The notes beneath the pieces were generated by a model, which saw only the letters and a list, made by a program, of their open reading frames with translations, did no database searches and was not told the DNA's origin. DNA of 64,000 nucleotides from Marsupella aquatica (taxonomy: Eukaryota > Plantae > Marchantiophyta): NCBI GenBank assembly GCA_973895155.1, contig OZ316893.1, positions 15,716,645 to 15,780,644 on the forward strand. Reading direction: 5' to 3'. Made by a program: the position numbers and the translations under genes. This document shows positions 1,549 to 47,678 of this stretch, in pieces (positions within the stretch are counted from its first letter, which is position 1; every line of letters begins with the position of its first letter).

Positions 1549-3210
1549 TATCCCATAATGGAGCAGAAAGAGACAGTCTTATAACCAGTTTGGCGTACAG
1601 TCCGTGTAACCATAAAGCAAACTTACTTACAAAATTGAGTGATTTGGAAAGAATCAAAATCCCTGGAAATAAGGCCATGCATTATTGTGTAAAGAAATTT
1701 TATATTAAAGTTGTGTTTACAGGGCCTTGTGTGCCATAATGTCATGGTAACACTTCAAGTCTAAGATATTTCTACTTTCACTGATTTTAGTGACAACAAA
1801 GGAGAGCTTTTTTATGAGCTGATCCAAATCTTGTGCATCCTTCTCCAAAATTGCCCTGAAAACTGCAAAGAGAAAAACACAAAGGGCATTCAGACCAAGA
1901 AATCAGAATGGATAGGCCAATTTTTTGGTCTAATATACTAATTGTTTTTGTTTTGAGCTACACAGGTTTCTATTGATGGGGCATTGTATAGTTCCCTCCT
2001 CAAATCAATTCTTGCATTGTAGAAAGTAAGTGCCCTACAAATATTTAAAGCAAAAATTTAGAAAGTCTCCATGTTTGACACTATTTGTGCACTGTCCTAT
2101 TTAATTACAGAGATTTACCCGCACTTCTATGCACAGAGGCTTTAGGGCGGTGACTCCTCAAGAAATTCTCATTGACATGACTCCAAATGTTGCAATTTTA
2201 ATTGCACCAAGACCATCCAATTTCACACTAAGAGTCAGAGTGATCCTATCTTTGCACTTTCCTCACACCAGTATTTTCCTGTGATGTTTGACCACCTTCT
2301 CCTTAGAAAGAGTTTGGAGTCAGGTAAATCTTTTTCTGAACTCCATTTCTCTAATTTGGTTTGTACAGTCACTCAGCACATAGCTATGGGGCTCAGATAA
2401 CTACCAGTTACAAGATAGCTTGTCAGTATGGAAAGGAGATGCACCAAGACTCATTATTGGAACCTGCTCGTAGAGTTTCAGGCCCAGGAGGAAAAGGTCA
2501 AACGTTCATGTGTGTCTTGATTGGTTACAACGAACAGTTCTCAGTTTAAAATAGGTCAGGCTGTAGCAGAACGAAACGGACGTAGCTAGACCTTATAATA
2601 AGGAGCTCCTGAGAGTACCCAATTCAGGACGCATCAGTATGGCTGGTTACCGTATAAATATACGCTTTTCTGACAAGTGCGGTGGCAACATATTTCTGAA
2701 CCGTATGTAATTTTAGTGACTAGTAATTTTAGTGTAGTGAGTCACAGAGCAAGTATTACCGTGCAAGTTAGTGTTGTTCATCTGTATGATCATTTATTAC
2801 AACCCCTTCTGGGTATTGTTTTTGTTTGGAAATAATTAATAATTAATCATTTATAAATTTATAGTTTACCATCTATTTATAGTCTCATAATTAGCTTGGA
2901 TGTCTATGGACTGTGACAGGAAACAGACCATTTTACATCTAATTATGACACCACCCAACTATAAATGGATGGTAAACATTTTTGTCCCTCTAAGAACATT
3001 ATATGCATCATCTCAAAGTCAATTTGAGAATGTCAATGAAATGGAATGAAAATACACATTTCAAATCTTCTGCATCTTCGTTGCGGCAAAGTCAACCAAT
3101 TTGGAAGAAGAAACAAGGAGCCTAATCTGCACCTAAAAGATTCCTCCACCTGATTGAAGCTCAATGCCACTCTTTCACCTAGTTTATCTCTTCCTACTCA
3201 TTTGATCACC

Positions 3211-4011
3211 ATGGCCCGGAACAACATCCGATATGATAAATTTATGGGTACATCTAAAGAAGATGCAGAGTTATATTTAAAAGAATTTGAAGCATCTGCA
3301 GCTTCAAATGGACAGAATGCTGATGCAGAGAAGGCCTTAATTTTTGGAGGATTATTGAAGAGGAATGCCCAAAAATGGTATGACCGGTTTGCTAATAAGA
3401 ATGATTGGGATCAAGTTAAAAAAGCATTTTTGGAGAAATATAAGGAGGATGGTGCTTCTGCTCGGGCCTTCACTAGAATTTCTAGACTCAGAATGAAGAA
3501 ACATGGTTCGTTGCGAAAGTATGCTGATAAGTTATTAGATCTTGTGGATCAGTATAATCCAACAACTTCCAAGTCAACGGTGAAAGATTGGTATATCAAT
3601 GGGCTGCCCAAGAATCTTGGAATGTATGTTAGACGAGAAGGTGGCACTACCTTAGAAGAAGCTCAAGAGGCTGCACAGAAATATGTGGATGCAGAGGTTG
3701 CTCAGAGGAAAGGAAAAAGTTATAAGAAGACTAAAAACAAAAAGAAGAAGACAAAGAAACCAGAGTCCACTTCAACTTCACATGATGAGAATAGTAGCAC
3801 CACTAATTCTGAGGAAGAATCATCAACATCTAACACCAATTCTGACACCAATTCAAGTGAAGCCAGCTCTAGTTCTGAATCTGAAAAAGCAAAAACCAAG
3901 AAAAAGAAGCACACTGTACCAGATATTTCCACAATTTCACCAAAAGTTAAGCAAGTATACAAGTTGATTAACAAATTATCTAGTCAAGTGTCCAACTTAA
4001 TACACACTTGA
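3211..4011 (+). CDS. gag: Ty3/gypsy-type Gag (capsid domain with Lys/Ser-rich tail), no pol downstream
   Basis: KFMG..ED...YLKEFE, AQKWY, W..VKKAFLEKY, WYINGLP retrotransposon gag motifs. Homologous to the gag at 54010. ORF track 3154..4011; first ATG at 3211. Confidence 0.8.
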   Translation: MARNNIRYDKFMGTSKEDAELYLKEFEASAASNGQNADAEKALIFGGLLKRNAQKWYDRFANKNDWDQVKKAFLEKYKEDGASARAFTRISRLRMKKHGSLRKYADKLLDLVDQYNPTTSKSTVKDWYINGLPKNLGMYVRREGGTTLEEAQEAAQKYVDAEVAQRKGKSYKKTKNKKKKTKKPESTSTSHDENSSTTNSEEESSTSNTNSDTNSSEASSSSESEKAKTKKKKHTVPDISTISPKVKQVYKLINKLSSQVSNLIHT

Positions 4012-4100: not shown

Positions 4101-6106
4101 TGTAATGTTGTACATTAGTTAGAAATGATGGAAATTTTATAAATTTTAAACTTTTTCTAACTCAAGGTACAATCTAGTTACCTTTTATAGCAATTTAGAT
4201 CAACTGAACACTTAACCTAATGTTATGCTTCATCGGAGGCTATTGTATTGGACAAGGATCGCGAATATAAATCCTTGCTCTTTACATGCTACCAAGAAAG
4301 AAGACTGGACATCATTGGAGAAGCAATGCAGACTAGAAGATTCAAGAACCGGCTTCCAAAACACTTTTTCAACAAGAATGAGCTTTGTATACAATTATCA
4401 CAATCAGCCGATCTCTGCTATTTTAGTTAAATAGCTAAAGTGGTCAAAAAAGTCTCATACTTTTTCAGGAGGTAGTAGTTGCGTAGTAGAATCATCCCTG
4501 CAAGTTTCATCTCAAACCGACATGTGTTTTGAAAGTTAGAATTAATTTAGTTTTACTGTTTTTTGCATAGCCGCGACTTCGCCGACGCTTTGTGAAGCGT
4601 CCCTTGTATTTGTGGACGCTTCAGAAAGCGTCCACCCAAAGACCACGACGCTTTCTGAAGCGTCCACCACCCAACCAGTTGTACTCCGATGCTCTGCAAT
4701 CCACATGAGGAGCGACGCCCACAGAAACGTCTGCTACCCCGAAGGTGACCTCGACACTGTGACGCCCACTGAAGCGTCCCGCCCGGAGCCCAGAAGACGG
4801 ACGCTGCAACCAAGCCTCAAAATTCAGCCGACGCTTTCTGAAGCGTCCATAAAAGTCCTTTGTAGTTTTGGACGCTTTCTGAAACGTCCACTATGCTCCC
4901 GACACTTAGAAACATTTTCAGTTTTCGCACTTTTATAACACCGCGCCACTTTTACCGATTTATTTGAGGCACTTAGAAGTCTCAAAAAAGTCTGAAACTT
5001 TTCCAGCATATAGACTATATGTAGTAGAGTACCCTAGAAAAGTTTCAACTCATTCCGACTCTTAGTTTAGAAGTCAAAATTAGATTAAAATCACTGTTTA
5101 TTAGTTTTACCGCAAACACCGACGCTTTGCAAAGCGTCCGCTCAAACCTCGACGCTTTCTGAAGCGTCCCCTGCATTTTTGACACTTTCAGCAGTGTCCA
5201 TTCACTTTTCAAGGATGACCGTCATTAAGTTTATTCAAGACCCTTTAGATATGAAAGGGCATGTCCTTTCAGTATCTCAATCTCCTTGGGTTCCTGCTAG
5301 CCTATATGAAGTAGAATTTGTGTCATTTTCAAGTGTGAAGAAATAAAGTAGTGCCTGTGGCATGTGCTGCAGACTGGAATCACCTTTGCTTGCAAATACA
5401 AAGGAATTCTTCTCCCTTCCTTGGTCTGAATGATTGAGAGTTTAGATCATTGAAGTAAAATTACTTGTATGAAGTTGAATCTCAGAAGTATGAGGGAATA
5501 GATTCCTTAAGTGGTGACAACCCATCTTCTTGAGTTCTTGATGCATAGTTTTTGGCATGACATTGCTTGTGCACGGATGCAAAGATTGTTACTCACCAAT
5601 TACCTGTGACTTCAATTTGATCATGATGGTGTTTATTATTCGTGACTCAGAGTACCGACTGGATATCGAAGTGATTGATTACTAGTTTCTTCTGAGTACC
5701 TTTGGAAGGAAAAGTTGAGACGTGTTGACGGCATTTTAGTAATCATCCTAGTACAGTAATCCATTCCAAAAATGTTCTTACGGATATACCACCCAAATCA
5801 CATCAAATGAAGTATTGATGAGAAGTTACCTTGGTGTTTTCCAGACTCCCTCATCATACCTCAAGATTTCATTGTGTTTTATTATTTGTTTCCATTTTAT
5901 TAATTGCATTTACAATGTTAAGCAAACATTCAAATCTATGCCTTGCTGAGCAATCATAGTAAAAGGCTCAAACCTGTGTTTTTTGTGACCTTAGTCATTC
6001 ATAAGTGTTAAACGATAGAAAATCATTCCTTTCTTGTTCTTCCATGGGATCGAATACCGAGTTTTGGACATTAAATGTTGATTTATGTCCTTAGTACAAT
6101 ACTACA
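4101..6106 (+). mobile_element. Putative 3' LTR (~2 kb) of the gag-only element
   Basis: Polypurine tract GAGGGGGGAG (4088-4097) precedes TGTAATGTTG at 4101. The end CAATACTACA (6097-6106) is an 8/10 inverted match. No matching 5' LTR is seen in the window. Confidence 0.6.
4584..5199. repeat. Cluster of about 8 palindromes GACGCTT-N4-AAGCGTC inside the LTR
   Basis: Copies near 4584, 4615, 4648, 4830, 4870, 5122, 5151 and a degenerate one near 5182. Confidence 0.75.
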
Positions 6107-8582
6107 GCTTTTGCAAGATTTCAATCGAAGGCCCCAGAGGCACTCATTGCGAGCATGATGCTTTATAGAATGGACTTTATAGTGAATTCTATCATTTTGA
6201 GGTGTTAATGACCAATGCTACATTGCAATGTAATGCCCACAAGTCCTCGTTGAGAGCTGCCATTTGGGATGCCACGAGAAATTTAGGGGTATTTACAAAC
6301 GACAGGAACCAGGAAACAGTAATAGCAAACAGTTACTGTTACCAGGAGAAATGGAAAAAAGAACATGGGATTGAGCTCCATTATTTGGTCAAGAAGTTAA
6401 AAAAACACCATCAATAAACCCCATTTTCAGTCGTTTTCAATACCACCATTCAATTGTCAAGGAAAGTAGGGGCCATTAGAATAAAGGTGTTGCTGAAAAC
6501 CGGTGATGGCCATCGCATAACGATAGTATGCCGGCAGGGAAGGGCAAAAATTTAGGTATTCATAAAATAACGACTAAGATGGAGATTCTACGCAACGTCA
6601 ATCGAGAAGAGAACAGTAAACTTAACGACCATTAGAAAAAGGCGTTGCCAAAACATGCGGATATTAGCAGCGCCCAGCGCTAGTATGCTGGAAGAGATTG
6701 TCCGTCACATCAATCGAGAAGTGAACACAGGAAACTCAATTTGAAGCATTTCCAACAAAGAGAGGCAATGGCAGACGTTGAATATTTTCAGCGATGGGCG
6801 CTACATTAAATGTTGGACCTCAAGAAATCAACGTCTAAACACGGAACACAATGACCATAGGCAGCGCTCGGCGCTAGCTCAAATCTAGGAATCAATGAAT
6901 GACCATGAAAGAACAAGAGAGCCGATCCAAAAGTGCATTCCTTAATTCCAAAATTGGTCAAAACATATAACCGGTATTACACCATCCGCAGATCATCTTC
7001 AAATCAACCCACGCCATAACATGAACATAAGCAGCGCTCGGCGCTAGCTAAAATCTAGCTATCTTAAATGTAGCCCGCCCTGGCCCGTATGTGCTTTATC
7101 TCGACCTGAGCCGCACATAACAGGGCCGCTGATCCAAAATGGGCCAAAGATGGAGCCGGAAATACATGAACTTAGAATCACCCATAGAAGAAATCCCACG
7201 GTCCAAGACGAACAAAAGCAGCGCTCGGCGCTAGCTTAAATGGAAAGCCTATGGCCACTGAAGCTTGTGTCATTGAAACCATCTCCGTCGTGATTAGCTT
7301 TAGCTCTGCGATTGGCAGTCGTCGTCGATGCCCACCCTAGCACGTCTGTGGTTTTGCTTGAAACCTAGACCCCTGAGATGCACATAAGAAGACGAGGGGC
7401 GCCGAAACTCCGAACTCTGATTCCCGGGGTCTGGAACATTTGTATCTAGGAAGTCAACACGTCCCAGTCGCTCTTGTACTCGTAGCTCAATAGGCTGAAT
7501 ACCATCAGCAGCAACGAGAGAATGAAACAAAAAACGATCAACCACTGCGAGCGGAGTGTCCCGGTTGTTAATCCAAGGTAAGTTCCTCTCCCCAGGACTA
7601 ATTGCCTCATCATAAGGAAGAGAAAAACGATTCCGGAAGGTTGAGGTCTCGCTGGATGTGTCACCATGAATGGACTCGAAGGAGCTAAAGTGACTCTCGT
7701 CCGGTCAAACTCTGGAAGGAGCAAAGAAGGCAAGCATCTCCTCCAAAGACATGATCTCCTTCTTCTCCATCTGGTGGGCACTGATAAATGCAATCGAGGG
7801 TAATGACAAGACCAGTGGTGTTGAAATGACTCGACTTCGAGAGAGGTTGTGTTTGAAATAACTTGCAAGAGTGACCCAATGGAGAGTTTAGGTTCGGAGA
7901 TCAGAAAAAACGTATCATAGAAAGGTTCAACGCAAAAAGGACCGTTGAGAAAGAGACGACTGTTCCGGTAGCGACAAATATGCGGGGCCAAGGAACGGAC
8001 GGAGGATTCAAAATTTTCAAGTAGAAAAATAGACGTTTGGGGAGCGCCCGGTGCTAGTAAGGGAAATGAGGAATTTAATCCATTTTATTATCAATGTAAT
8101 GTAAACAAATCATATCTAATATGATAAATAAATGGATTAAGATAACAGCGCCCGGCGCTCGTAAAATGTAAGCCGAAAAAACTCTTTAAGAATCGGACGA
8201 TTCCGATTCGGAGCTCTATGACCTCTCGGTAGAGACCGCCTCGTCATCTACATACTTGCTCCTACAAACGTCATCTACATAAGGATTTCGGACAAATTTT
8301 CTATCAACTCCTCTTCGTAGCCGGAGACCTTTGTTTTCCCAACAAAGAGTCCTTTGATTGTCTTCCATTCTTGCAGCATTCTCAGCGTAAGAGGGTAACA
8401 CAAATGGTTTCTCCGGAGTGACCATTTCAAAACGAGCTACCTTTCTTCTGAGTTTGAAGCGTCTTCTCGTATTCCATTCGGACCTGGGTGAGAACAGAAG
8501 TTCGTCAACCGATTGTATGAATGGATATCACAAAGGCATGAAGGAACTGGAAAGGAGAAAGAAGCTTACGAGTTTCAGAACA

Positions 8583-9941
8583 TTACTCGGAAGAGTCATC
8601 GCTGTCACTCTGGCCAGCGGATTGTTCCTGACCCTTCCCCTCAGGTGTGCCATCCTCATCTTCGTCTGCTGTACCACCACTTGACTCATCGTCAGAGTCA
8701 AAATTGAGTACAGAACGGAGCTTGTCCCTCTTTTTCTTTTCGGGTGGCTGAATTGGGGGTGGCAAAGTTTTGACTTCCTTTGGAGAAAGTAGATCTAAGA
8801 ACACCTTGGAACCAGTCTCAACGAAATCTTTCCTATTCTCCACTCCAATTACAAACCTCCCAGAATAGTCTCCAGCTACAAAAGAGCTTCCCGACCCCAC
8901 TATCCAATCCATGAAAATATCCCTAGGATGAGTGATGAGCTCAATCACAGATTGCATGAATCCAACAGACAATCGGGCGTTTCCAGCAAATTCCATCTCA
9001 GGTGTTGGATCGACTTTGAGAGAGGGAAGTCCAATTAAATTTGTTATTGAGGGATCTTCGGTGGCAGACAGAGGTCTAAACCTTGAGTCTTTTGGCACCT
9101 TCCTTTTTCAGACACTCGAGAGAAGACATCCAGCCTCAGCGTGAAGATCTGTAATATAACCCAAGCAAGGTATGTCAATGGATGCATTTGTAGACAATTT
9201 TTTAACGGCAAACCAGATGTCACGATGAGAAATTTACCTGTCGATCAGTCTTCGGCGCGTACATTGGAACTGACATGACAACATTGTGTGACGAGATGCA
9301 ATGAAACTTCTTTGAATCTTGACAAGCCGATATAACCTGAGACATCGGATCGTATTCCCCGTTATGTAAAATGGCCAGCATTCCGTCATTAGATAAAAAT
9401 GGGTCCATTCCACGAAAGAAAGATGTGGACAAAGTGTGGTCAGGGACATTCCATTTAGGAACTTTTCTGTCTAGCAGAGATGGTTTAAGTCCTGTTGGAA
9501 GGTAGATGAAACCCGCGTGGACCCCAAACGATCTCTCCTTTCCACCATGCACAATGCCCTTCTCTCGAAAGCCAGACTTCATGAGATCCTTTCCCCACTT
9601 CTCTACACCATTCACCCAGTCAGGCTTCTCCCCTTTGTTAAACGTTGAGTCGTAGAATTCTGAGATGCTAGATTCAACAAGGCAATGCCTTGAAAGAGTA
9701 CTCTTGAAGTCCCCGACTTCGCGTTGAAGACCTACAGCAGCAGCACTTTCTCGAGAAGAAGATCCACCTTCAATGGTCCTTTTTCTCTTCTTCCTTGTAC
9801 TGGTAGCATCCACCGGCACGATCGCCTTCCCTTTGTCGGTGGGAGTAATTGGATCGGATGGTGCTCCGGTATTGGCTTCTGAAGCCTCTGGGGTGGCATC
9901 TATCTTTGTATCTCCGCTCACCACGGCGTCCGACTTTCTTC
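8583..9941 (-). pseudogene. Beta-class amino (N4C/N6A) DNA methyltransferase-like domain, 2 exons, frameshifted, catalytic motif degenerate
   Basis: Motifs X-I-II in RLSVGFMQSVIELITHPRDIFMDWIVGSGSSFVAGDYSGRFVIGVE (cf. KP..L...I...T.PGD.VLDPF.GSGTT..AA...GR..IG.E). Upstream exon has FLSNDGMLAILH (motif VI-like) and AGFIYLPTG at the DPPY position. GT-AG intron 9237-9149; frameshift near 9100. Confidence 0.7.
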
Positions 9942-10180
9942 CTATTCAAATGGATGTCGACGTGATATCCGTCAATAAAGAGACAACGACAATGCTAACG
10001 CCCAGCGCTGGCCAAACTATCATAAGACTTGGCCTTAAATATACATCTTTCAGAGTAATAAATACCAATTCAGTTTCTAAAACGTTGACTCTCATAACAG
10101 CGCCTGGCACTAACAATGTGACAGATATTGACTGCCATAGCAGCGCCGGGCGCTAACCAAAGGAAACAAATTATACTTAC

Positions 10181-12385
10181 GTTTTTTCCCAGATCTTGTT
10201 GATTCACTTGGGGCCGTAGTATCTGCTTTTGCTTTGGCGCGAGGCTTCCTGCTTCAGTCAACATGAACAATTGTTGTCTCGCATATTGTTTGCAATTATG
10301 TTGTGGATTTGATCCACATCATCCGGAAGCCCCTGCTTCATGTCAGAAACAATGTTGACTTGGATCTGGGACTTAGACAGCTTATGGAAAGCATCCTTTT
10401 CTCTGTGATCAAAGGGCGAGTCCCATCTATCTGTATCCAGGTACCATGGGCAATGGGTTCTCTCCCATTCACTCAAAGGTCTTGCTGGGAAAATTCCCTC
10501 AGTAGGATACATAGAATACAATTCAACTAAAGAATTACTCTCCAATAAGACAGTCCACTTGAGGAAGGCAGCAGGATACGCCCAGAAGTAATCAGGATTG
10601 GTAGCCTCCATGTGGATGTAAAAATGGTAGAGATACCGTTTTGCTCGCTTCTGGTTCTTCAAAGAGTAATCCTCTTTGTCAGGATACTTCGAGGGCCACA
10701 TTGTATTAAAAAACTTACCCTTGACAGAGTCACCATATTTCCTAAAATCATTCGTAACTATTTCAATGAGAGATTCGAATGATTCACATGCCCAATCTTG
10801 TAAGCAATTCACGGGAATGGTTTGTTGGACCTCTCGTAGAGCACATTGCAACATCCCCACCGCAATCCCTTCTACATTATTCCATGTAATCCAAGTGTGA
10901 CACCACTGTTTGACTGGATCATCATTGACGCTATTCGGATGGAAGAATTGTCTCCGGAGCTCCGGATTGCAATGTGCTACAAGCAAAGTACTTCGTAGCT
11001 TGGCGTCAAGAGCCGAAACAGCTGTAAAAAGCCTGGGCCGGTCCATGGTACACGACACGGTATCTGGCTTCTTCTCTCGCTTATTCCTCTCCGTGACAGC
11101 ATACATCTCTGTGCACGTAGATAGAAAGTCCTCAAACTCTGGACTCAACAAAGGAGTGATTTTCGAGGTCTTAACTGCCCATTCCTTGGTTGCTTCCTTC
11201 ATCATAACGGCATGCCTTCTGGAAACCTCCTCGACCGACCAAGGGGTACCGAGGGCCGCAGCGGACTCCATGTCAATCTTGAACTGGTTCGAATACGACT
11301 TAATCTTATCCTGACATAGAATGTACAAAAGAGCCTCCTGAGGCATCTTCTTTGTGTACCAAGATCCTTTTCGCGTCTTCACCCTGATCTGCTCAAACTT
11401 CTTGTAATTTGCAGGGTCGATGAGCTTACTATAGTACTCCAGGTCGTGCATCAAGATCCGCTTAATTCGATCGGCATCTAGGATCCAGGAGGGTTCCACA
11501 ACTGCTTGTCCTAGCCTGAAATAAAAGAACGAAATGAGAACATATAAGCAGCGCCGGGCGCTCGCAAAACATGGCCTCGGAAAGTTATGCTAGAAAGAAT
11601 GAACAATTCATAATGACTCACGAAGTTCTGCACAAAAGGGTATCTTACTGGTTAACGGTGTGCATAGCCGCTTCGATTTCTATCAGCGAACCCTTGTCGC
11701 CATTGAAAACAGTACAAAGCACACGCGGGTGGTACTTTGGGTTTTCGGGACTCTCTTGAGTGACAAGAGTCCACGAGTAAAGCCTATGGTTCCTGTCAAA
11801 AACTGAGAACATTCTGTCCTTCAAAACTAGAAAATCTGGGTCGGCAACACATTCTTCCTCGAATTTCTCGTTCTCAGATGTCCATATTGGATCCCAACTC
11901 TCACGAATTTCTTGAGTACAGGTGAGAAGCGCTCCCTCAGCATCGGTAGGCTGAACGTAAAACCTCATTCCAATCGAAGAATTGTATCCCATGCTACGGA
12001 AAGAATCTTTTAGCTTGTCGATGGAAGAACTGTCTTTTTGTAGAGTTCGGACAACCTCCATATGCACCAATCAACATAGTGGAATTCGTGGAGGCTCTTT
12101 GTCAAACCCTCTGAAATCCTTCCCAAACAACATGACATGTTTCGAAATAAGATCCATCTCGGAAAATGAAACATCTTGAATCGCAAATGTGTCAAGATTC
12201 TCCATCTTCTTTCTCGCTGGTTTGGCAAACGAAATACTTGAGATTGGAACAAGCGATGCGGTGGACCTCGTTACTCGACGCGTATACACTGAACCAGAGA
12301 ATGAAGACTCAGAAGACTCGCAGTACCCACGATCCTGATCCCCAACCACACTATACCCCCTCGACGAGGAGGGGATTGCATCCAT
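10181..12385 (-). pseudogene. ParB/Srx-like N-terminal domain protein (probably the 5' part of the same gene as the MTase-like exons)
   Basis: IDKLKDSFRSMGY...FYVQP...FSVFDRNHRLYSW matches ParB boxes (L..SI...G...P; DG.HR). An in-frame TGA at 12071-12073 joins two ORFs. GT-AG intron 11648-11516 keeps the frame (VNQ|LGQAVVEPSW). A further intron 10180-9942 leads to the MTase exons; the frame is disrupted near 10260. Confidence 0.62.
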
Positions 12386-13311
12386 CGTCTTTACGATGAA
12401 AGGTGTACGAACGGAATCCTCACGACTAATTACCAGTTCTCTGTACCATATTAATAGTTGCGTCCGTATTATATCCAATCAATGAGTGCTATTCCCCTCT
12501 TTGTAATCGGTTGGAGAGACGTTACTCATTGCAAACGACAAGATTCAATTTAATTTATCAGTGACGGAAAGCGACAACTTAGAAATTGTGATAAGTATTA
12601 ATGTGAACTACGCTAAAATATTTGCGTGATAATCACGCTGAACATTAGTTACCGTTAAAAGTTACCGTTGTCTCAGCACCTTGCAGACAAACATGCAATG
12701 CCAGCGCCGGGCGCTAACGAATAAGAGACTACCAAATTGAAGAACTTATTGGTGAACAAATGCTAGCGCCCGGCGCTAGCCATTTGAATAATTTGATTAA
12801 TGTTCTTTTTAAGAAACAGATATTGTCAACAAACTCCAAAATGTACCTGTTTCACCTGTAGTAACCAAACTTTACTTAATATTATGAGATTAAGTTTATT
12901 GTATCAATACTAGCGCCTGGCGCTAGTAAAAATTTACTGTATTTGCATCAATATTTCGTATGTAATTATGCTAGCGCCAGGTGCTAGTCAGAATACTTTT
13001 CAAATTATGTCATTGTTATTCCAATGGCTTTTAGGTAGCGCCCGGTGCTAATGAAATGGAAGCACTTGTATAGACTACTATCTAGTCGTATTCATGTAAT
13101 AAATATTCCTGACACCCGCACTTGACGGGCAAAAATGACAAATGTATCATTTATGATTTCAACGGACGCAAAGTTGTGCGTGTTCTATGTCGTATTGAAA
13201 CATCTCTTTCAACGGCCGGTGGTCCTTGAAGGGTTGTTATAAGCACAAGAAATACGGTTGGGATTGGGCTATTGCATGAATTACTTCTGGCCTAAACTTC
13301 TTTCGTCTACA

Positions 13312-16300
13312 ATGTCGCGCTCAATTGTTATTACACGTGCTTGTACCCGGGAAGTCATCAAAGTTCCCGTGCAGGTTTCTGATACTTACAGGCAAGTAAG
13401 TGAGAACTATCTGTGCGGGAGATTTGATTTGAGAATCAATGACATTCTGTCGATTGTTCCTGAGGAGTCATCGAGTGGAGGACATGAACCAGCTGCGGCA
13501 TTTGATGTGGATGATGGAATACGTTTCTGGCACATGAATGTAGGACTTTGTTACACGCTTCATGTCAGACCTACTCCTCTTCAATCGGTTGTTCAGGACA
13601 TTCCGCCCCAGGTTGTTGAAATATTTGAGAGTGAAGATGAGGAAGTTGCGCCCAATCCTCCTGAGAAGCACAAAGCTCCAAGCTCTAGTTGCCTTAAGAG
13701 TGAACCGGTGGCCACTTCCGGAGATGTCCAGAAGGTTTACCGGCGGAGTGCAATGGACGCCTTACTCAAGGCCACAGGCCATAGTGAATTGTCAAGATTT
13801 ATCTCGGCAGGGGACTTTCGACACGATCAAGTTCCTTGTTTGCCAAACAAGTACAACGGAAATATTGTATTTGAATTGCCTCCCATTGTGGGAATGCAGT
13901 CCAAAGGATCTAGACTTCGTGACATGGACCGTGCCAAAGATTGTTACATTTGGACCAGGATTTTTCCGATGACCGCAAACGTGCAACCAAAAAAACACTG
14001 GGAGTTTGGTAAAGTCAGTTGTACTGGGTTCGTCGAGTGCAGGAACAAGTCCTGTGAATATTTTTAGCGAAAGAAGAGATGCAATTCTAAAGCGTGGGCT
14101 GGTACCCCTAAGCTTAGTGGTGGGTTCGCTCATTCAAGAGGGTGGTATAGTATGTCACTATTGTGAAAAGATTCCTTTTTGTGTGGACTCTTGCCCTGCT
14201 CGCTTGTTCTATATGTATCCACAGGTCCTACTTGATACAGAAACCTGTAGTCACATGTCTCGGCTCGCGGTACATATAGGTGAACATAATCATCCGAGTA
14301 TAAAAGTTTTCTCCAGGAGTGCTGAAAAGATGGCCGAGGACTTAATAAAAAGAAATCACAAAGCCAATCCTCTTGCGAAACCGGCTGGGATTTTGAATTT
14401 GGCGACTGGTTCGCTTGTGAAAGCTCTTTGCGAGAACGTTGATGACATCGTAGATATTGAAGAAACCGAAATTTGGAAGTCTCTCATGGTTCTATCTACT
14501 CCTCAGAAATTTGCGTCCCTTTGTCGCAGCGTTCGAATGGACCAGGCTGGTCGTGGTGAGTTAGATTTCCTAGCTCGAATGCAAAGGTCAAATAATATTT
14601 CTTTTCTCCAAAGGTATCTTCTTCCGGGTCAGGGTTGTTTAGCAGATCATCCCCACATATTCAAAATGTCAGTCAAGGGTCATGGATCTGGTGTAGATCT
14701 TTTACGTCAGATGCAACCTGGCGGAAGACTGGAAGGGGCTTGGGTGAGTTTTGATGTCATGAAGCGAGTGACAACCGACTGGTTTACTTCTAGCGCACAT
14801 GTTTACGATCACAACTTTCGAGCTCTTTGTACAATATTCACATGCGAACTAAAAGCTGAAGACACAGAGTCCTTTGAGAAGGCATGGAGAATTATGATAG
14901 AGGTTTGTAAGGAAAATGGGTTACATGAGGTTACCATTCAAGGTTTTATGGCCGACAATGCTCAGGCTGGATGGATTGCCATTCGCAATGTCTTTTTTGG
15001 GGGTCACCCAGACCCTGAACGTGAACGTTCTGATGCATTCCACTTTTACCAGTATTTCCATCGACATTCCACAGAGGGAGTACTCGAGGGTAGGCAACCT
15101 GAACATCTAAGACTGTGGGAGAAATTGTGAAATGCTCCATCATTCGTTGCTGCATACCGAGTTTCTAGGGAGATTGTGTTATGGTGGCAAGCAGGCAACT
15201 GTGTTCCAGGAAAATTGATGATGTTGCAGAGTTGGATATCATGGTGGGTCGTTCGATGGCGTCAGTGGGGGAATTTCATTCGCGTGGTAAGTTTTATCAA
15301 TGCTTACAATAGTCACTTCGCCATGTTTTTTACTAGTGCCTGGCGCTGCTTTAAACTGTACAGAGAACTTTTCCACATTCATGACTTATGAACACTTGAT
15401 AATACCAACATTACATTAATGTATATTATATACATTGCTAGCGCCTGGCGCTGCTTAAACAAATTGACTAAAGTTGGTCTGGATCCACTTCATTGCAGAG
15501 CAAAAGCGCAGAAGAAGGTGCCCTCATTCCAAACTGTACAGGTTCTGAGTCAAGGCACGCTTCAATGAAAGCATGGGCAACCAAAAAAATGGTGGGCCTC
15601 TTCGAAGCATGCGAAGTTGATCAAAATCGGGCTATATCTCAAGTTGCAGGTTACAGTGCATATCGGAAAGGACTCAATAGAGGGAAGGGGCCAACTATCT
15701 GGGAATTGGCATTCCGTTCGGCAGACCAAGCAGGTTCATCCAAGTTATTCGAAGAAGCCACTAACATGATTCTTTCCAACTCTGCCGATTTTGATCTGGG
15801 TAGGAATTCTCCTCTGAATGGAGATATTGTCACCAAATCGGTTAAGAGGAAGGGACTTGCAACTGGGATTGTCTCGCCACAAGACTCCCATCGGCATGAC
15901 ACCATTCTCATCACTACCCCAAATACTCGAGGATTCAAACGGAAGAATCTCAACAAGAATGAGTTCACTTCCATTCCCGCCAATGTAGTAGATCCTGTAG
16001 TAGACCTCTACGGGAGTGACACTTCAACAAGTGAAAGCAATTCCCTTGCAAACACCCCTAAAGCCACGAGGGAAACAACATCATCTCAACAACCACGCAG
16101 TGCCCCCGCTGTGGTTCAACGTTTGCCGACAGAATCAGTTCCATTGGAAATGGACGTTCCAAGCGGAAGCTGGCATTTGAGACGGACGGCCAAATATGGG
16201 GCAGGGCCACAGTGTAATGGGACCTTGCATGGAAATTCTGACAGAGATGAGTGTCAAAATTGTGTCAAGAAAATAGGGTTCCATTCTGCTGCTGGTGTTG

Positions 16301-17029
16301 TCGGCATTGTTGTCAGCGGACATCGCATTTTCAGAGGAACTCCCATTGCCGAAATGATATGGTTCTGCCCAAACAGCACATGCTACAAGAGCCGCCCGCG
16401 TCGTGGTGTTGAACGCCTTCCTCCTGTGCCGGACATTCTGCCAATTGTGAAAGGAACAAACCTCTCGCCTGGCGAGATAGAGTACCTTCAAGCGCAGGGA
16501 GTCTCTATGGTCCAAACAGCTGCGCCCTCGATCTCGAACTCGAACTGCACCATTTGCATTCGACTTGAGAATCAATGTTAACACATTTCCAGAGAAAATC
16601 AATTTTGCGGAGCCCAACGTGCGCCTTCGTAGCAGGAATGGGAGGAACTCTAGACCTCGCTCTAATCTAATTGTGGCTCATAGTAAACGAATGGAGTCGG
16701 CTCGAAAAGAAGCTAGGACTCTGGATGGAGAGTGGGATGTGATTAGTGGAATTGCTTATGGGAAACAATTCAGAATACGGACTCACGAGAACCTTCGATC
16801 GCCAAACACTTACTTTGTCCAAATGTGCATCTTCCCTACTTGTTCCTGTGAGGATTTCTTCCGTCGTCATTCCCGCGGCAAGCCGTATATGCCCTGTAAA
16901 CATTTGTACTGGGTGTTCATAAATGTCTTCAAGTTTCATGTAGAGGAGTCTACCCTGTGTAGCCAACCGATTTTGACAGTTGGAGAAGTCAGACTTGTGT
17001 TGGAGAGGCACAACGCAAATGGTTTATAG
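13312..17029 (+). pseudogene. MULE-type DDE transposase with N-terminal Cys-rich region and C-terminal SWIM zinc finger (disrupted)
   Basis: SFDVMKR, FMADNAQA..AIRNVF, DAFHF (CxxH position), then TCSCEDF...PCKHLYWV (SWIM). In-frame GT-AG intron 15287-15498. Frameshifts near 14060 and 16570; stop at 15128. Confidence 0.8.
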
Positions 17030-18867
17030 AGGGACTCGATTTATCCTTAATTGTCGTATTCCATAACGGATACTATGTTGTTTTGTCTTTAGTCAACGGA
17101 TATTACTTTAGTTTTTTATGTGGTTTTGGTTAGCGTCGGGCGCTGGTCAATAACTTATTTATAAAATTTTGTTTTTTGTGGTTAGTGCCATTGGATGGTT
17201 CCATAAGCTTTTATTATCGTCCCATTATTCTGCGTACTTAATCCTTTGTTAGCGCCTGGCGCTAGTTTCACACTCTGCCTGACAGACCCCTATGTTTCCG
17301 ATAACATAATTCAGTCTACAACTGGATTTGTGGTGGGTCCCGCCTGAGCTTACTCCATTCCTCCATGGGTTAGCCTTTTTTTAACCACACTAATGAAGTA
17401 TATGAACTAAATGAAGCATTTAAAAGTGGACTGTTTAGAAATGTTGTTATATATAAACAGTGGTGAATTGAATGACAACCCTTTTTTATCTATAATCTGA
17501 GCAAGTGACAATGGATTGGAACCTCTCCGAGCAACTGTGAGCACACTTTTCCCTTATATCTGACGTCGTGTCTTATGCCAGTAGGAATATTTTTAGCTTA
17601 AGTATGTGGTTGTTCCTTACGTGAATTTTTGAAAAACTTTGCCAAATAGTACACCTTTACAATAACAATTTCCTGTTACCAGGAGAAATTACCTGGTAAC
17701 AGGAAAACTGTTTCCTGTTTCCTGTCTCCACTGCTATACCCAGAAATTTAGTAGGAATCTCTGCGAGTGCATTAGCTTGTATGGAGGCAGTCGATCAGTT
17801 CCAAGTCATACATGATTGTCTGAAGCATGCGCCACTTTGCAATGTGACATTCCGGATTAATCGCGGGATTTTGTCTGTTCACTAGTTGGAGGTTATTTCA
17901 GCAAACACTCAATTACCGCAGTCACGTCTATGGACATAGATGCAAACTCCGCGGCAACAAGGATCTCATCGTCCTGAGCAGTCGCCACGGCTAGGCGCTT
18001 CCAGTGAGGGAGGCACCCCATATATTTCAGCCCAGTCGACTATCATTCCAGCCCCGTCTACTTTTGGTACAATCATCCCCCGCCCCTATGTGCAATACAC
18101 CATCCTCGAATCCAGCCCAGCCACCAATAACTCTATCTCAGGGCTCTTGCATAACAGGTACATCAAGTGGAGTGCCAATATCGGGCGTGCTCTAGGGTGA
18201 AGAACATGTCCATGCCGACAAAGAAATCCAGGAGGGCACTTCCATGTCTTCCATTGTTTGACGTCTAGCAGAAGCTTTTAGTGCCTCATTGGATGTGTAC
18301 TCTGGACGTAACAGATAGACAGTGTAGAATCCGCCTTAGCCAAATTTAGCTTTTGCAAGTATTATGTGTTATCACTCTGTGTTGCACCTTGTTGCAATAT
18401 AGGAAAATGCTGGATTGACTATGACTATATGATGAAATATGGGAAGTTTTTGTATTCAAAGTCTTGTTCTGTGCTTACTCTAGATTCGTACTATGCCGTG
18501 TTTACTCTACATTGTTACTCACCAACATCATTTTACTGAAATATCTAATGAAGTACAATGTCAATAATGCTGACTACACTTGTCATGCATTCATTATTCC
18601 TTAAATTTGAAGTCCCAATGATTGGCATTGTCGATCCTCGTGGTGTCGTTGATTCAGGCACCATGTGTAATTTGTATTGCAATGATTGTTTCAATGAATG
18701 GATATGAAATGATGTTGTTACGTATGCTACGAGTGAATTCAGTAACGGAATGAATGATTCCTCCTTTGTGATTAGTAATTGATTAGTGAGTATTAAATTA
18801 TTCACATGTGATTCCCCTGTTCATTGATGGTCAGTATGCATATATATATTGCAGGTGTGAAGACAAT

Positions 18868-21566: not shown

Positions 21567-24500
21567 GCTGTTAGAATATGAACAGTGAGTACACAACTTT
21601 ACAAGAGACATGAAAGACCGTGTGACTTTAGGGACCAAATTTTCTTTCGGGTTGAGCCTGTTTTGATTAGTTTGTAAAGGACTACATATATGTGGTCCTT
21701 TATGTTGTTTAGGGCCTGCCATTTTGAAGTCAACCATTTGTAGTTTGGAAGGCCAATTTGTGAAGCAACCTCGGATAAATAAATGAACGTTTTTTGTTCA
21801 GCGCTCTCTGAATTTTTCTAGCGGTTCTATGCACATGGAAGGCCGTTCGGGGAATGTGTAGTATGATACATTCACCTTTTCAGGGGAATGTATGTTCTAT
21901 ACCTCTGTTTATATTGTCATCTGAGTACAAGAACTAGTGGACACTCTATTCATGATTCGTTCCAACCTCTTTAACATTCTTAAAGTACTAGCATGCGTGT
22001 CTTTGTTGTGTCTTTGCCATTCATTCATTACACCTTGTGGACATAAACAATATAAGAAGCACCATGTTGTCCATGTTTTCCATTGAAGTCCAAATATTGG
22101 CATGATAGTACTGGGGCAAACATTTGGACCACATTGTTAATATATTCAATGTACTACAAATGTTTGGAATAATGTTTCAATATAGGACCCGATCCTAAAC
22201 CCCCTTCCCACCCTGGCAAACTCAGACATGTGAACTATGAACATTGAACTATGAACTATTCATCCACAATGGAGACTATATTCTCTTCTATAGTTGTCGT
22301 TGCATTGGAGTCACTTGCGCATCCTGTGGAGAAGGCACGTAAAATGTCTGGAAAGTTGGGCGACATAGCCCAAGTTTGGCTTGAGCCAATTTGGATATTT
22401 CCAATGACATCCATGCTGGCCTGGCTCGGAGGCAATTTCAGTACGCCGGATTTGGATGCCTGGTTAATTACGTTGGTAAGTGAAAACTATGGGGCTGCTC
22501 AATTTTTTGTCCTCCGCATTGCCTTTGACGCCAAGGGCTTCATACATTCTCCCTTTGCCCTAGTACCAGCCTGGTCTGTGATGGCAAGGCACATGTCGGC
22601 AAGGGCGTCTACAAATTCCTTGTCGAATTTGGCTTGGAATGATAATGCCTTTTCCTTTTTTTTAATGCGCAGCTTCTCAGGTGCGTTTGGCCCGCTCACC
22701 AAATTCCGTGGGTCACCCGGAGGATACGGATTGACATTTTCTTTGTTGGACCCTACCGGAACTTTCCCCCTTGCGGTTGCATTTGCCTTTCGCACCCATC
22801 AATTTATCTACCCAGCCGCGTCTGGCAACAGTCGTCCTGTCACTCCCTTCAGCAGGAGTGATTGGTTCATGTGCTGACTGTACCTCCAGCCTTGCAACAT
22901 TTTGTTGTGCCTCTCTGGTGAAGAGAGACTCCATCCAATGCTTGAGCTCAATCAGACCTTGTTTGGCAAGAGTCAGGTGATATGCAATTTGATTGTAACA
23001 TGTGGTAACAATGGCTTGAAATTCCTCCATGGGTGCAGTTCTAAGGCCGCGTAACCTGGCTTGCGTCATCTGTTGGTTGTTCCCACCTATCCTCATCCTC
23101 ATCCGGATATGTGATATTGATATTCCCAACCTCACAAGCCAACTTTGGGCATTCCCCATGCATCCGTTTGAAATGGTGGTCGAGGCCACCCAAAAATGAT
23201 CCCATCTTTGTTTTGTGTTGATGCAGGACCTCCAACTCCGTCATCTTCTTTGTAACCAGCAGAACTTTTATCTACATGTCAATCGTACGGAAACTTAAGG
23301 TTAAGCTAGAGGCGTCAAAAATTTGTAGGAGCAAGTCCTTCAGGATCAATTATATATAAAGCAGTTTGGAAGAAGCAGAAACTGAATGGAATTACCTGAT
23401 GTTTGCATGCATTCCCTTGAAGTGATTACCCACATGTGCATTCACAACTGTCTTTGTCCCAGTCGATGACAAGATGTTCCTTGGTGCTGGGATTGTTTGA
23501 GGAAGTGCTTCTAACACATGCACACTTGGCCAGCCCACACTGAAATGTTTGCACATAATCATCTGGGATTGTCTTGGCTCTACTGAGGGACTTATGCACA
23601 AGGCCTTCTATCGTTCTGTTTCTGATTTGCCCCTGGAATTTGTCAACAGCAATACACCAATAGTGATTCTTGATAACTCTCAAGTGACCAAGTAGCCAAG
23701 GAAGCGACCATCCCGTAATGTTGTACCTACCCGCCTTCAACTCCATCTTGAGGGTGTGGTGCCAGCGTTTGATGCCCCCATTTGTAATCTGGTTTGCATG
23801 ATTGTACCCTCTGAACTGTACTGCCCAATTGGCAACCTTGTTATGCCACTCCTGTTTGTAATATGCAACAAATACCGGTTGCCTTGGGTAAGTTGCCATC
23901 GATCTATAAAAGCTTGGGACTCTTCAGTCATGTTTGCCAAGTAATGTACACGATATTAGCATTTGGAATTCCAAATAAATCCACATTGCCAAACTACTGT
24001 TGTACAACCAACACATTACAAGCACAGGTCCAACATAATACAAGCAGACAACCAATAGATTAGAAGCAATGATAGAGTTCTCACCACTTCCATCTGGGCT
24101 TGCATGACAATACATGAGAGCGCCCAGATCTGCATTGATCTGGGCTTTGGCAAAGGGGTAGAAAACCTTTGAGATTATGTTTTTGGTCCAGGCTCTTTGA
24201 ACGTGCCAAGTGCAAAATGTTATAGGAACTTTGGGGAAAACCTGTCTGTATAGATAACACATTTGCATGAGAATAAATTTGATGGCATGCATTTCATATG
24301 AAAGACTGCAGCGGTGACAAAAAATGATATGATATACAGTATACCTGATTGCTGCTTGTTCCTCGTCCGCTACATCAATAATCCAACAGGTAGGTGTCCA
24401 CGAAACTTGCAAATTCAATTTTGTCCTCTTGGCATTCACGCAGTCTTTCACAACTGGGAGGACTTGGCTAGCTTGTAGGGCTTTGTACATTTGCAGAAGA

Positions 24501-24790
24501 GCAAATGCTACGGGAATGGCATTTTGAAATTTGTCATACACAACAACTGTGTAGAAAGGGAACTGCCAATGGAAAACAAAACAAAACTTAAAAGTGTCAT
24601 GGTATATACAGTACATTTGAAGCAAGTACAAAATTGTCTGCAACAATGACCAAAACTTCTAAATGGCAATACAAGGAATTGCAAATAAGGTACAGTAAAT
24701 GCATAGCTTACTCCAAAGTGGTTGGTACCAAAAGTTGCATCAAATGCTACGGGTCCATCATGACCAAGAAGCGATAGCTTCTTTTGCTGC

Positions 24791-26721: not shown

Positions 26722-29700
26722 TCACAACGGCGGTAGGCTGCTTTGCTTACGATAGCTTCCAAGGATCTCTGAGGCATTACCCAAATTTTCCTCCGGTTCC
26801 CAAGTACTCTCGGCCTGATCATAGCCAGCCCACTTCACCAAATACTCTAAGATTTTCCTTCCCAACTTGCGTTTGTAATGGTGGTCCAGAATTAATTGCC
26901 TCCACCTCAAACTCCTCAGCGTCCTCCACCAACATGGCGTCCGGACGCAAGACCTGATCCCGGTTGGGATCATCGTCTTTGACAAACTTCTTGAGCCGGC
27001 TAACATGGTAGCTTTTGCCCACACCCATTTCCTTGGGTGTCTCCAACACCATTGAAACCGGATTATCCTTGTGGGCCCATCGTATAATGCGATAGGGCCT
27101 CGCATATCTGGGAGCCAACTTCCTACTTATGTTCCCGTGGTATTGCTCAGGTCTCAACTGCAACCAGACGCTCTCCCCAATTTCAAAGCTTACTTGGTGT
27201 CAATGTTTATCCCCTTGTTCCTTGTACCGACTTTGGGCAAGGGTCATACCCTTGGTAGCCGCTTCCACAACTAGGCGTTGCTCTCGAATAAAATTGTCCG
27301 CAGAAGGAACCTTGCTTTCCTTCCGCCAAGCTTCCGGATTTATAAACCAGGAGGGCGCCCTTCGCCCTTGGCGTCCTCCCTGTGGCCACCACAAACGGCG
27401 CAAACCCCTTCGCCGAATGCTTGGTCGAGTTATACCTAAACTCGGCCATTGTTAAATGCTTTGCCCAATCTTTCTGATTGGCTGTCACAAAGTGACGCAA
27501 GTAGTCCTCCACGATACCATTAACCCGTTCAGTTTGGCCATCTGTTTCGTGATGATACGCTGATCCCCTAGTCAGGTCTGTTCCGGATAACCGGAACAAC
27601 GCCTTCTAGAAATGGCCCGTGAACTTGGTATCGTGATCGGACAGGATATGCAACGGCAATCCCCATTGTCGGAAGACATTGTCAAATACTAGACCGACAA
27701 CCTCTCGGGCCGAAACCATCTTCGTAGTAGGCAAGAAATACGCCATCTTCAAAAAACGATCCACGATTGTTAAGATGGAGTTACTGCCGTGGGACTCAGG
27801 TAATCCAACAATGAAGTCCATGGAGATAGACTCCCATGGAGCCGCAGCTACTGGTAAGGGTTGTAGTAGTCCTCCTTTTGCTCTATAGACCGTTCGGTTC
27901 TTTTGGCACGAGTAACAACTTTGCACGTGTTGCAGGACCGATTGCTTCATGTCCGGCCAATACACATCTCGCGACATGCTGCGATATGTAGCGGCTTGTC
28001 CTCCGTGCCCTCCCCAGGGCGAGTCGTGGTACTTTTGCAGAACCTCTAACCTTAGAGACTCTGGTATGTACACACGCCTCTGCTTGTATCGCCATAACTA
28101 GACATTATGCGTCGTATCCAACCCCAACGATACGTGCCTTACCTTGCCCCGGCTACCCCCATTGCTTTGCCAATCCTTAGCTAACCTGTCACCCCCATAC
28201 GCCGCGGCCAGAACCTTTGGCCACTCGGATTCAAGCATCGTGATCCCATTGACACGATGTTGGTCCTTACGCGATAACACGTCCGCTGCCGTATTTGTCT
28301 TCCCTGGAACGTGGCGGACTTTGAAATCAAAATCCACCAAGAACATCTGCCAGCGCATTTCCTTGGGGTTCAGCCTTGGCTTAGAACTGAAGTACCCGGC
28401 CGACGAGCTATCTGTGTGGATTACCACTTTGGGACCGTTCTTAAGGTAAATCTCCCACTTCTTCAACGCATAGATCACACCATACATTTCCCTTTCTGGC
28501 GTGATCCAATGATTTTCCAACTTACATGACTCGAAGGCCACAGGACGCCCATCTTGGTGAAGACAGGCATCGATGGCATAATCACTTGCGTCTGTCCAAA
28601 TCTCGAACGGCTTCCCCATCTCAGGTAACTTTAGAACCGGTGGCGTTATCATTAACCGCTTAAGTTCTAGGAATGCTAACTCGCAATCCTGTGTCCACAC
28701 AAACACTTTGTTTTTCAACGTTAGCGCATTTAGGGGCCTCGCAATCCTTGCATAGTCTTTCATGTATCTTTGATAGAACCCCGTAAATCCTAAGAAGGCT
28801 CTAACTTGCCTTACATTGGATGGGCGCTCCCATTCTTTGATCTCCTTAAGCTTGTCCTGACTAGGCGTAATCCCATCCGGGGTAAAAGTATGGTCGAGGA
28901 ACTGAATCTCGTTCATCGCAAACTCGCACTTGCTAGTTTTAGCAAACAGATGAGCCTTACGAAGGCGAGAGAACACTTCTCTGAGCAACTGCTCATGCTC
29001 CTCCAATGTTTTTGAGTAGATTAGGATGTCGTCAATAAAGACGACCACTCCTTGGTCCAAAAAGTCATGAAAGATGGTATTCATCATCTTCATGAACATT
29101 GCGGTTGCATTACACAACCCGAGCGACATAACCAAAAACTCATACCTGGATCCAAACCTTGTGCGCATCGCGGTCTTATACTCGTCTCCCTTAGCCATGC
29201 GGATCTGGTAATACCCAGACCGCAAGTCCACCTTTGAAAACTTCTTAGCCCCGGAGAGGCAATCAAAGAGGTCATCCATATGAGGTAACGGGTACTTGTT
29301 CTTTACCGTCTGCTTATTGAGGGCCCGGTAATCTGCGCACAATCTCAAAGTACCATCCTTTTTGGACACAAACAGTGCGGGCGCCCCATAAGGACTTTTA
29401 CTAGGGCGAATGAACCCTTGGTCGATCAACTCTTCCAAGGCGTTCTTCAACATCATTTGCTCATTCAGGTTCAGACGATAAGGAGCTTTAGCCTGAGGAG
29501 CCAAACCTGGCTCCAACTCAACTTGGTGATCCACTTCTCTCCGCGGGGGTAAACCTTTAGGTAGCTTCTGCGAGAGCACATCATTGAATTCCTCTAAAAT
29601 TTCAGGAATTCGACCGTAGTCAGGCCCGACCTTAGCTGACTTGACCTTTGGTTGCGACGCAGCCTCCTTAGTTGGGTGGAGAAGAAAGAAGAAACAATCA

Positions 29701-47670: not shown

Positions 47671-47678
47671 GGATACCC

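Follow-up and report, generated by a model that had tools for sequence, protein, structure and literature searches.

The window analyzed here, a stretch of 64,000 nucleotides from the liverwort Marsupella aquatica (contig OZ316893.1, positions 15,716,645 to 15,780,644), contains a Mutator-like element (MULE) of 11,455 bp at positions 6287-17741, between the two copies of a perfect 10-bp target-site duplication (TSD), AGAAATTTAG. This copy, which belongs to a Mutator-like lineage, is dead, with both of its genes broken. In addition to a transposase gene it has a divergently oriented accessory gene, whose product is predicted to combine a ParB/Srx fold with the fold of a beta-class amino-methyltransferase (amino-MTase), and its non-coding DNA holds many copies of one palindrome. 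By analogy with the VANC proteins of VANDAL elements, the accessory protein may be an element-specific palindrome binder that counters silencing, a reading that we favor while giving it slightly less than an even chance of being right. Comparisons of sequences indicate that this is likely a transposon lineage of seed-free plants. Its accessory-gene system is apparently undescribed: no gene with ParB and amino-MTase parts on a plant MULE was found in the literature searched, and supplements, subscription journals and repeat databases may hold one.

Palindromes in non-coding DNA

The palindrome AGCGCCNGGCGCT, which includes CCNGG and GCGC, has 20 copies inside the element, against a single one in the remaining 52.5 kb of the window (chance mean, 0.94). 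None of the 20 copies lies within the 68% of the element that was scored as coding, and the copies are kept amid otherwise unrelated flanks, although three of those near the left end sit inside longer direct repeats. The initial annotation of this DNA had included neither the 20 non-coding palindromes nor two features described below, the fifth exon of the accessory gene and the lesions of the transposase gene. The copies of AGCGCCNGGCGCT are distributed as follows.

6669-7232: five palindromes, left subterminal
8043-8159: two palindromes, 3' of accessory exon 5
9997-10154: three palindromes, accessory intron 2
11550-11562: one palindrome, accessory intron 1
12703-13049: five palindromes, between the divergent gene starts
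15335-15452: two palindromes, transposase intron
17132-17263: two palindromes, right subterminal

Relatives from metagenomes were represented by the best 80 of 199 stretches, collapsed to 48 non-redundant loci (L numbers below, except those of phages). AGCGCCNGGCGCT is absent from all 48, and other palindromes are found there: GAGGTGCC-N6-GGCACCTC is present 17 times in L018, upstream and in an intron; TTCGGCGCCGAA six or seven times in L026; ATATGC-N6-GCATAT nine times in L039; AACTTT-N8-AAAGTT 9 to 13 times in L023, L037 and L050; and CCAAGCT-NN-AGCTTGG four or five times in L043, L051, L061 and L081. In these other families the arrays are concentrated in the roughly 2.5 kb upstream of the accessory gene, and neighbors in a quick tree tend to share motifs. 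A blind test, from which nine of the 48 loci were dropped as too short, found an enriched palindrome in 21 of 39 gene-centered regions versus 5 of 33 control regions (P 0.001 by Fisher's test, an optimistic value because the tested loci are related). These family-specific arrays lend circumstantial support to the idea that the accessory protein may protect its own element.

Tandem satellites, AATRGCCATTA-like and with a period of about 25 bp, were seen in L030 (~5400-5950), L035, L088 and L021 (~12100-13050). They lie 3' of the ParB-like exon, between conserved regions, and replace the dispersed palindromes.

The accessory gene

A three-frame reading gives the accessory gene five exons rather than four on the minus strand (12385-8216), about 1,200 codons and four GT-AG introns. 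The initial annotation had rightly recognized a divergent spliced gene that starts at 12385, and a ParB-box-like DRNHR, YLPT and DWIVGSGS are confirmed in it. Its end at 8583 has to be revised: the TAA at that position is inside intron 4 (donor 8586), and a fifth exon follows at 8483-8216. The GT-AG sites, the continuity of the frame and annotated proteins that are collinear with the gene are the grounds for five-exon splicing and for a single transcript.

11649-12385, minus strand: accessory exon 1, for the low-complexity N-terminus and the ParB/Srx-like domain; interrupted by an in-frame TGA at 12071-12073
11783-11797, minus strand: ParB-box-like motif, DRNHR in the window copy, DGNHR in relatives
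10181-11515, minus strand: accessory exon 2, helical middle domain of about 350-400 residues, fold unmatched; TGA at 10254-10256, frameshift at ~10260-10310
9238-9941, minus strand: accessory exon 3, disordered linker and N-half of the beta-class MTase-like domain
9493-9504, minus strand: motif IV position, YLPT replacing (D/N/S)PP(Y/F/W), family-wide
8587-9148, minus strand: accessory exon 4, C-half of the MTase-like domain and acidic tail; frameshift at ~9101-9108
8909-8886, minus strand: motif I, DWIVGSGS, in accessory exon 4
8216-8483, minus strand: accessory exon 5, conserved LPxY..[FY][IV]DDE acidic tail

The window copy has two stops, two frameshifts and a G>R change in the ParB box. 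Contigs of four runs (1129, 1797, 1177 and 63) were aligned to 4.1 kb of the element; the stop at 10256 is missing from nearly all of the aligned depth, and an extra base at 9101 is present in part of the contigs. P0154, a predicted Riccia protein of 1,207 residues that holds all domains, and its Riccia paralogs are collinear with accessory exons 1-4. Exon 5 was matched as well, to Riccia tails at E 6e-6 to 0.02 (in a small sequence set), and it aligns with the LPxY..IDDE exon of 16 metagenome loci; a profile of that exon from the metagenome loci did not match the window. The LPxY..[FY][IV]DDE tail may be a short contact motif for chromatin proteins. LPxY..F[IV]DDE may be an Spt5-like histone-binding motif; the letters of that motif do not appear in the excerpt of PMC8886531.

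The N-terminal and middle domains

The N-terminal domain is predicted to have a ParB/Srx fold. In an AlphaFold2 model of Riccia P0154 (residues 155-1173, 111 sequences, mean predicted local distance difference test [pLDDT] score 63) the pLDDT of this domain is mostly 85-98. Its VIA matches are KorB-CTP (Z 8.0, root-mean-square deviation [rmsd] 4.2, 121 aligned), PadC (7.3) and Pnob8 ParB-N (6.4), followed by sulfiredoxin (6.2, 89 of 89 aligned) and SerK (5.6); with the whole model as query, all five rows among the top 50 that cover model residues 1-237 are ParB/Srx folds. A single-sequence fold of accessory exon 1 had a pLDDT of 32.6 and was unusable. The residue R36 is kept in 62 of 66 N-domain sequences, and the DGNHR box, a nucleotide box of GxxR type, is near-invariant at about 30% identity (G in 62, N in 66, H in 64 and R in 60 of 67 aligned sequences) and better conserved than the MTase motifs. 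We take the conserved R and DGNHR to correspond to ParB boxes I and II.

PF02195 (ParB_N) matched none of 67 family members, four of which had weak matches to DUF1015 and four to DndB, and a search of PDB with the P0155 sequence found no match. No relative of the N-domain was found in phages (best E 2), GTDB contigs or viral contigs (2 stretches, 0 loci) by pattern scans, which are insensitive. The Atlas features of P0154 residues 160-330 are closest to those of eukaryotic hypothetical proteins, including cnidarian ones, and of DUF3723 (0.96), with ParB_N at 0.92, which suggests that ParB-like domains occur on several eukaryotic mobile elements. We know of no MTase fusion of DUF3723, and no account joining DUF3723 and ParB was found in the literature searched. 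In fungal Starships DUF3723 is conserved mobile-element cargo (bioRxiv 10.1101/2021.12.13.472469); the likeness is an unaligned match of 186 shared features, and element class and host differ. The middle domain is helical in the model, and as part of the whole model it had no Atlas match and no clear VIA row. No ParA-like open reading frame (ORF) was noticed among those of the window.

The methyltransferase-like domain

The C-terminal domain is predicted to have the fold of a beta-class amino-MTase. Exon 4 matches Pfam N6_N4_Mtase at E 7e-5, below the curated cut-off, and Riccia P0157 lies above the curated PF01555 cut-off. Further sequence matches are to M1.HpyAVI (E 8e-5) and to plasmid and phage DNA methylases. 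An hhalign comparison with nine phage and plasmid beta-MTases had a probability of 97.8 over 213 columns and placed DPPY over YLPT; only the N-half of this match is independent, because the prokaryotic set had been chosen via C-terminal matches. Foldseek matched the MTase model to CcrM (E 1e-6), and VIA matched model residues 741-1014 to MboIIA (Z 11.8, rmsd 4.2, 210 aligned), PvuII (11.1) and N4CMT (10.0). The permuted Rossmann order, with motif IV ahead of motif I, was found by hhalign, Foldseek and VIA. Both the ParB/Srx and the Rossmann amino-MTase folds anticipated in the initial annotation were matched on the Riccia model. Motif I reads DWIVGSG, DFAGGWG, DVMAGCG or, in metagenome loci, DLFASIG-like, and belongs to a low-confidence part of the model.

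Motif IV is YLPT in the window, D[LM]P[ST] in Riccia, DIPE, DVPR or NVPG in metagenome loci and DVPF in one fern protein; the catalytic (D/N/S)PP(Y/F/W), SPPY included, is absent from the window family. Among 39 plant-type rows with four aligned letters, many of them Riccia paralogs, the D is kept in 25, the second P in 29 and the aromatic residue in three, two of which are decayed and poorly aligned. The aromatic residue is present in all nine prokaryotic rows. Of the 22 variants that the aligned contigs show in 9472-9530, 16 are synonymous (29% expected), as are 19 of 33 coding rows (from 40 of 820 difference rows, seven outside the scored frames having been dropped). The YLPT Tyr codon and the first two Pro bases are invariant, with L>H and T>I/K as minor variants. 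Because motif IV is degenerate and the variation is biased toward synonymous changes, the MTase-like domain looks conserved yet non-catalytic across the lineage. The option of a catalytically dead binder, first raised for this disrupted copy, is supported and extends to the whole lineage; YLPT is the state of the family and not a product of decay. We rejected a two-residue deletion at motif IV, since the aligned contigs show no indel and since P0171 GVDAGFVYLPTG can be aligned to Riccia AADCLYLDLPTG without a gap.

The domain could instead be an active amino-MTase with a non-canonical motif IV that marks the element by writing N4-methylcytosine (4mC) or N6-methyladenine (6mA) at or near the palindrome. 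Preservation of the whole beta-class fold and motif order in the model would be expected of such an enzyme; the glycine loop of motif I is present in window, Riccia and fern rows, the D of motif IV persists in the 25 rows noted above, and the fern DVPF is near the phage DIPY and DLPY. Bacterial-type 4mC writers have also been co-opted in rotifers and Marchantia, and the closest homologs of N4CMT include CCSGG enzymes. We nevertheless consider an active writer distinctly improbable: the aromatic residue is missing from 36 of 39 plant-type rows, the window family has Tyr replacing Asp as well, and a change of SPPY to APPA abolishes the activity of N4CMT. The proposal in the initial annotation that the module marks its own element is weakened by the same loss.

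The closest phage MTases found have DIPY..P-W or DLPY: L001 (1943-2710, SMO_1P) has DIPY and then P-x-W, and L009 and L010 have DLPY. They are closer to the plant DxPx..VPxWN segment than are DPPY enzymes and offer a lead to the donor subfamily.

Relatives, copies and gene order

An exhaustive protein search with accessory exon 1 found 195 representatives at E<=1e-3; the 30 relatives looked up include 13 from Riccia sorocarpa and six from Adiantum. Word-indexed protein searches with exons 2 and 3 found no match, and a search with an MTase profile found 27 proteins, of which 25 are from Riccia, one is from Adiantum and one is a further close relative. A metagenome scan with P0154 itself found no match. 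According to the contigs the family is high-copy and diverse, with divergent subfamilies, in the runs of two organisms, and weak in those of a third. An MTase-like region lies downstream of the N-domain in 19 of the 23 metagenome loci with at least 3.5 kb of downstream sequence. Eight of the 48 loci have a transposase core upstream, on the opposite strand, and L029 adds an N-terminal transposase piece (nine loci in total); the arrangement is never other than divergent. In loci that lack the Mutator core no other transposase type recurs upstream. The quick-search tree places the window loosely beside Riccia and further rows, and supports no claim as to donor or order.

The sequence comparisons indicate that the accessory gene is a family feature and not a one-off capture. 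The gene is carried by Riccia, Adiantum and the 48 loci, contrary to the earlier concern that other members might lack it, and the element differs from a Pack-MULE in that a full transposase gene is present and the complete accessory gene is conserved across families. A captured passenger without a role for the element, with palindromes as by-products of local duplication, would agree with the two broken genes of the window copy, the decayed state of most metagenome copies and the three palindromes inside direct repeats. This reading is largely refuted and highly improbable. Variation is biased toward synonymous changes, DGNHR hardly varies among distant relatives, the same architecture and a constant divergent layout recur in liverwort, fern and metagenome families, and the palindromes are conserved in unrelated flanks and kept out of coding DNA.

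Ends of the element and transposase gene

6277-6286: left TSD AGAAATTTAG, identical to 17742-17751
6287-17741: Mutator-like element, non-functional copy of a high-copy family, 11,455 bp
6287-6345, plus strand: left terminal inverted repeat (TIR), short and degenerate
7300-8000, minus strand: GC-richer stretch without palindromes, broken frames of 60-212 codons; possible third ORF
13312-17029, plus strand: putative Mutator-type DDE transposase, C-terminal SWIM, four lesions; intron 15287-15498
17685-17741, minus strand: right TIR, short and degenerate
17742-17751: right TSD AGAAATTTAG, identical to 6277-6286

The TSD- and TIR-bounded element was placed correctly at first annotation: the TSD is perfect and the termini are GGGTAT../..ATACCC, with imperfect inverted similarity over about 55-60 bp. 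MULEs have TSDs of 8-11 bp, and short-TIR and non-TIR groups exist among them (PMC6446971); the 10-bp TSD is within this range, and short, degenerate TIRs are allowed. Sub-repeats CCTGTT/ACCAGG, unlike the palindrome, were seen inside the TIRs (6287-6345 and 17670-17741) and are candidate transposase sites. The stretch 7300-8000 had no homolog in the 80 metagenome loci and no Pfam match over the cut-off. A search of Rfam found no match.

The transposase gene has a single GT-AG intron of 212 bp. Its candidate catalytic D/D/E are at 14753, 14954 and 15547, with DAFH at 15032, all read by eye; we assume that D, D, (C/D)xxH and E correspond to the familiar signatures. A SWIM-type CxC..CxH is found at 16841-16906 (Pfam SWIM E 0.036, below the cut-off), and a Pfam search of the transposase found no MULE domain. 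SWIM zinc fingers are common, but not universal, in Mutator-like elements. These motifs are consistent with the plus-strand MULE-SWIM transposase of the initial annotation, and its lesions are a TAG at 14065, a frameshift at ~14100-14140, a TGA at 15128 and a frameshift at ~16500-16580.

Comparison with known systems

The element resembles VANDAL/VANC in organization and is not a member of that group. Both are of Mutator type, have degenerate TIRs, carry an accessory ORF and keep a family-specific motif in non-coding DNA. The short motif bound by VANC21 is located in introns and in intergenic and terminal non-coding DNA, and other families have other motifs (PMC5735166). Unlike VANC, the accessory protein has predicted ParB/Srx and beta-MTase folds; judged by Pfam, a full-length homolog matches N6_N4_Mtase only and nothing suggestive of VANC. 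The motifs are palindromes of 12-20 bp where VANDAL has asymmetric 8-9-mers, the lineage belongs to seed-free plants, and anti-silencing is proposed here by analogy.

Rotifer N4CMT and Marchantia DN4MT1 likewise have a prokaryote-type permuted amino-MTase fold encoded by an intron-containing eukaryotic gene (PMC8885841, PMC10406627, bioRxiv 10.1101/2021.02.12.428880). Those two belong to the host, keep SPPY intact and write 4mC, whereas the accessory gene, likened to them by fold, is transposon-borne, multi-copy and fused to a ParB-like domain, and lacks SPPY/DPPY and a chromodomain. In DIRS1 retrotransposons, MTase domains are judged inactive in all copies yet retained (PMC4738411); these are PCIF1-derived (group 2) and part of a retroelement polyprotein, whereas that of the window is beta-class, ParB-fused and on a DNA transposon.

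The palindromes of the element recall, as we see them, parS or KorB operators. Prokaryotic ParB-methylase fusions also have ParB/Srx N-terminal to an amino-MTase (PMC5512222, PMC4738411); the accessory protein differs from them by a eukaryote-specific helical insert of 350-400 residues, a long linker, four introns in its gene and a degenerate motif IV. Of the bacterial-derived module first proposed, the ParB/Srx and beta-MTase folds are supported, but its arrival as a ready-made prokaryotic fusion is not; the searches described above retrieved no N-domain relative from prokaryotes or phages.

Possible role of the accessory protein

ParB dimers bind palindromic parS. A two-fold binder is expected because the sites are palindromic, and those beta-class MTases that have been tested work as multimers, in most cases as homodimers (PMC10406627). 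An element-specific anti-silencing binder is favored because the layout is VANDAL21-like and because beta-MTase and ParB dimers suit palindromes. The accessory protein, rather than the transposase, would read the palindromes, binding as a dimer to those in the element's own non-coding DNA. Its apparently inactive MTase domain may have been retained as a module for contact with DNA, S-adenosylmethionine (SAM) or the dimer partner, and its ParB-like site might bind or hydrolyze a nucleotide, so that the protein would load at a palindrome and then spread. The outcome would be lower 5-methylcytosine (5mC) or higher transcription of cognate copies. A bolder variant, which we think unlikely, is a eukaryotic ParB/parS-like system in which a nucleotide-gated dimer loads at palindromes and spreads, the dead MTase engages or shields cytosines, the element escapes 5mC silencing, and protein and palindrome co-diversify across the Mutators of seed-free plants; the fern DxPF branch may then still write an amino-methyl mark.

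Several observations weigh against a palindrome-binding, anti-silencing role. Thirteen of 14 departures from AGCGCCNGGCGCT in the window copy are C>T or G>A, and the sites therefore look formerly methylated. The observed/expected CpG ratio of the element (0.77-0.81) exceeds that of the flanks (0.53), but one long terminal repeat region has 0.76, which leaves the advantage of the element over its surroundings inconclusive. Eighteen of the 39 loci are without an enriched palindrome, some of the positive ones are intronic tandem satellites (L021, L030, L035 and L088), and the loci behind the Fisher test are related. As to the protein, the ParB-type VIA Z-scores are moderate (<=8.0), a profile of 67 N-domains matched no ParB chain in PDB, which leaves no ParB match at the sequence level, and model residues 939-1006 of the MTase domain have pLDDT <50. 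A transposase core is present in only 6 of the 23 loci with at least 3 kb of upstream sequence, and the search for TIRs and TSDs in metagenome loci found AT-rich, chance-like pairs only, none of them convincing. Transposase and accessory gene are, moreover, co-inherited, and the correlation of motif and family therefore cannot tell which protein is the binder.

The palindromes may be sites of the transposase, for synapsis or self-activation, with the ParB-pseudoMTase as a separate, MURB-like nucleoside triphosphatase (NTPase) or nicking helper. The Mutator transposase of AtMu1c alone binds motifs and hypomethylates cognate copies of its family, without accessory proteins, though at TIRs (bioRxiv 10.64898/2026.08.24.746577). 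ParB/Srx domains elsewhere are nucleases or NTPases, and one ParB-methylase nicks (PMC5512222); such a helper would also agree with a DGNHR box far better kept than the MTase motifs. This account is somewhat unlikely, although it is the most serious competitor. The AtMu1c peaks are at TIRs, whereas none of the 20 palindromes is in a TIR (the nearest are at 6669 and 17263); six are intronic, the TIRs carry sub-repeats of their own, and the layout resembles that of VANC sites (PMC5735166).

Binding of the palindromes could also limit transposase expression or recruit silencing, which would make the accessory protein a self-repressor or copy-number controller. Such a role would fit the five palindromes between the divergent starts, the upstream arrays of other families, the top N-domain match, KorB, a ParB-family repressor by its entry title, and the excess of C>T/G>A departures. 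High copy number and many divergent subfamilies speak against it, as does the rapid turnover of motifs between families, in keeping with an escape from host control of the kind argued for VANC (PMC5735166); both are compatible with repression too, and we regard this role as quite unlikely.

It is still to be explained how VANC, a binder of a short motif, can free a whole multi-kilobase transposon of methylation. In the system described here the mechanism is testable by point mutants and binding assays, because the parts of the protein are recognizable and the candidate site is obvious, and Riccia copies and liverwort genetics are at hand. If the favored anti-silencing role is correct, the element would show that transposon-encoded, sequence-specific control had a second and independent origin. 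Plants would then have recruited a prokaryote-type amino-MTase once more, in this case apparently as a pseudoenzyme, and the protein and its palindrome might be the first pair of ParB/parS type in a plant nucleus. The natural panel of protein-palindrome pairs could serve as programmable epigenome tools.

Neighboring sequence in the window

23429-24658, minus strand: another broken pair of transposase-like frames (IPVAFALL, ITNGGIKRWHHTLK), unrelated to the first transposase and without the palindromes; probably a further MULE
27609-31559, minus strand: Ty3/gypsy-like gag-pol remnant, by eye
43506-49460, minus strand: Ty3/gypsy-like gag-pol remnant, by eye
3154-4008, plus strand: Ty3/gypsy-like gag-pol remnant, by eye

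The last of these includes a segment, 3232-3678, that matches the gag part of the chimeric fern model P0148.

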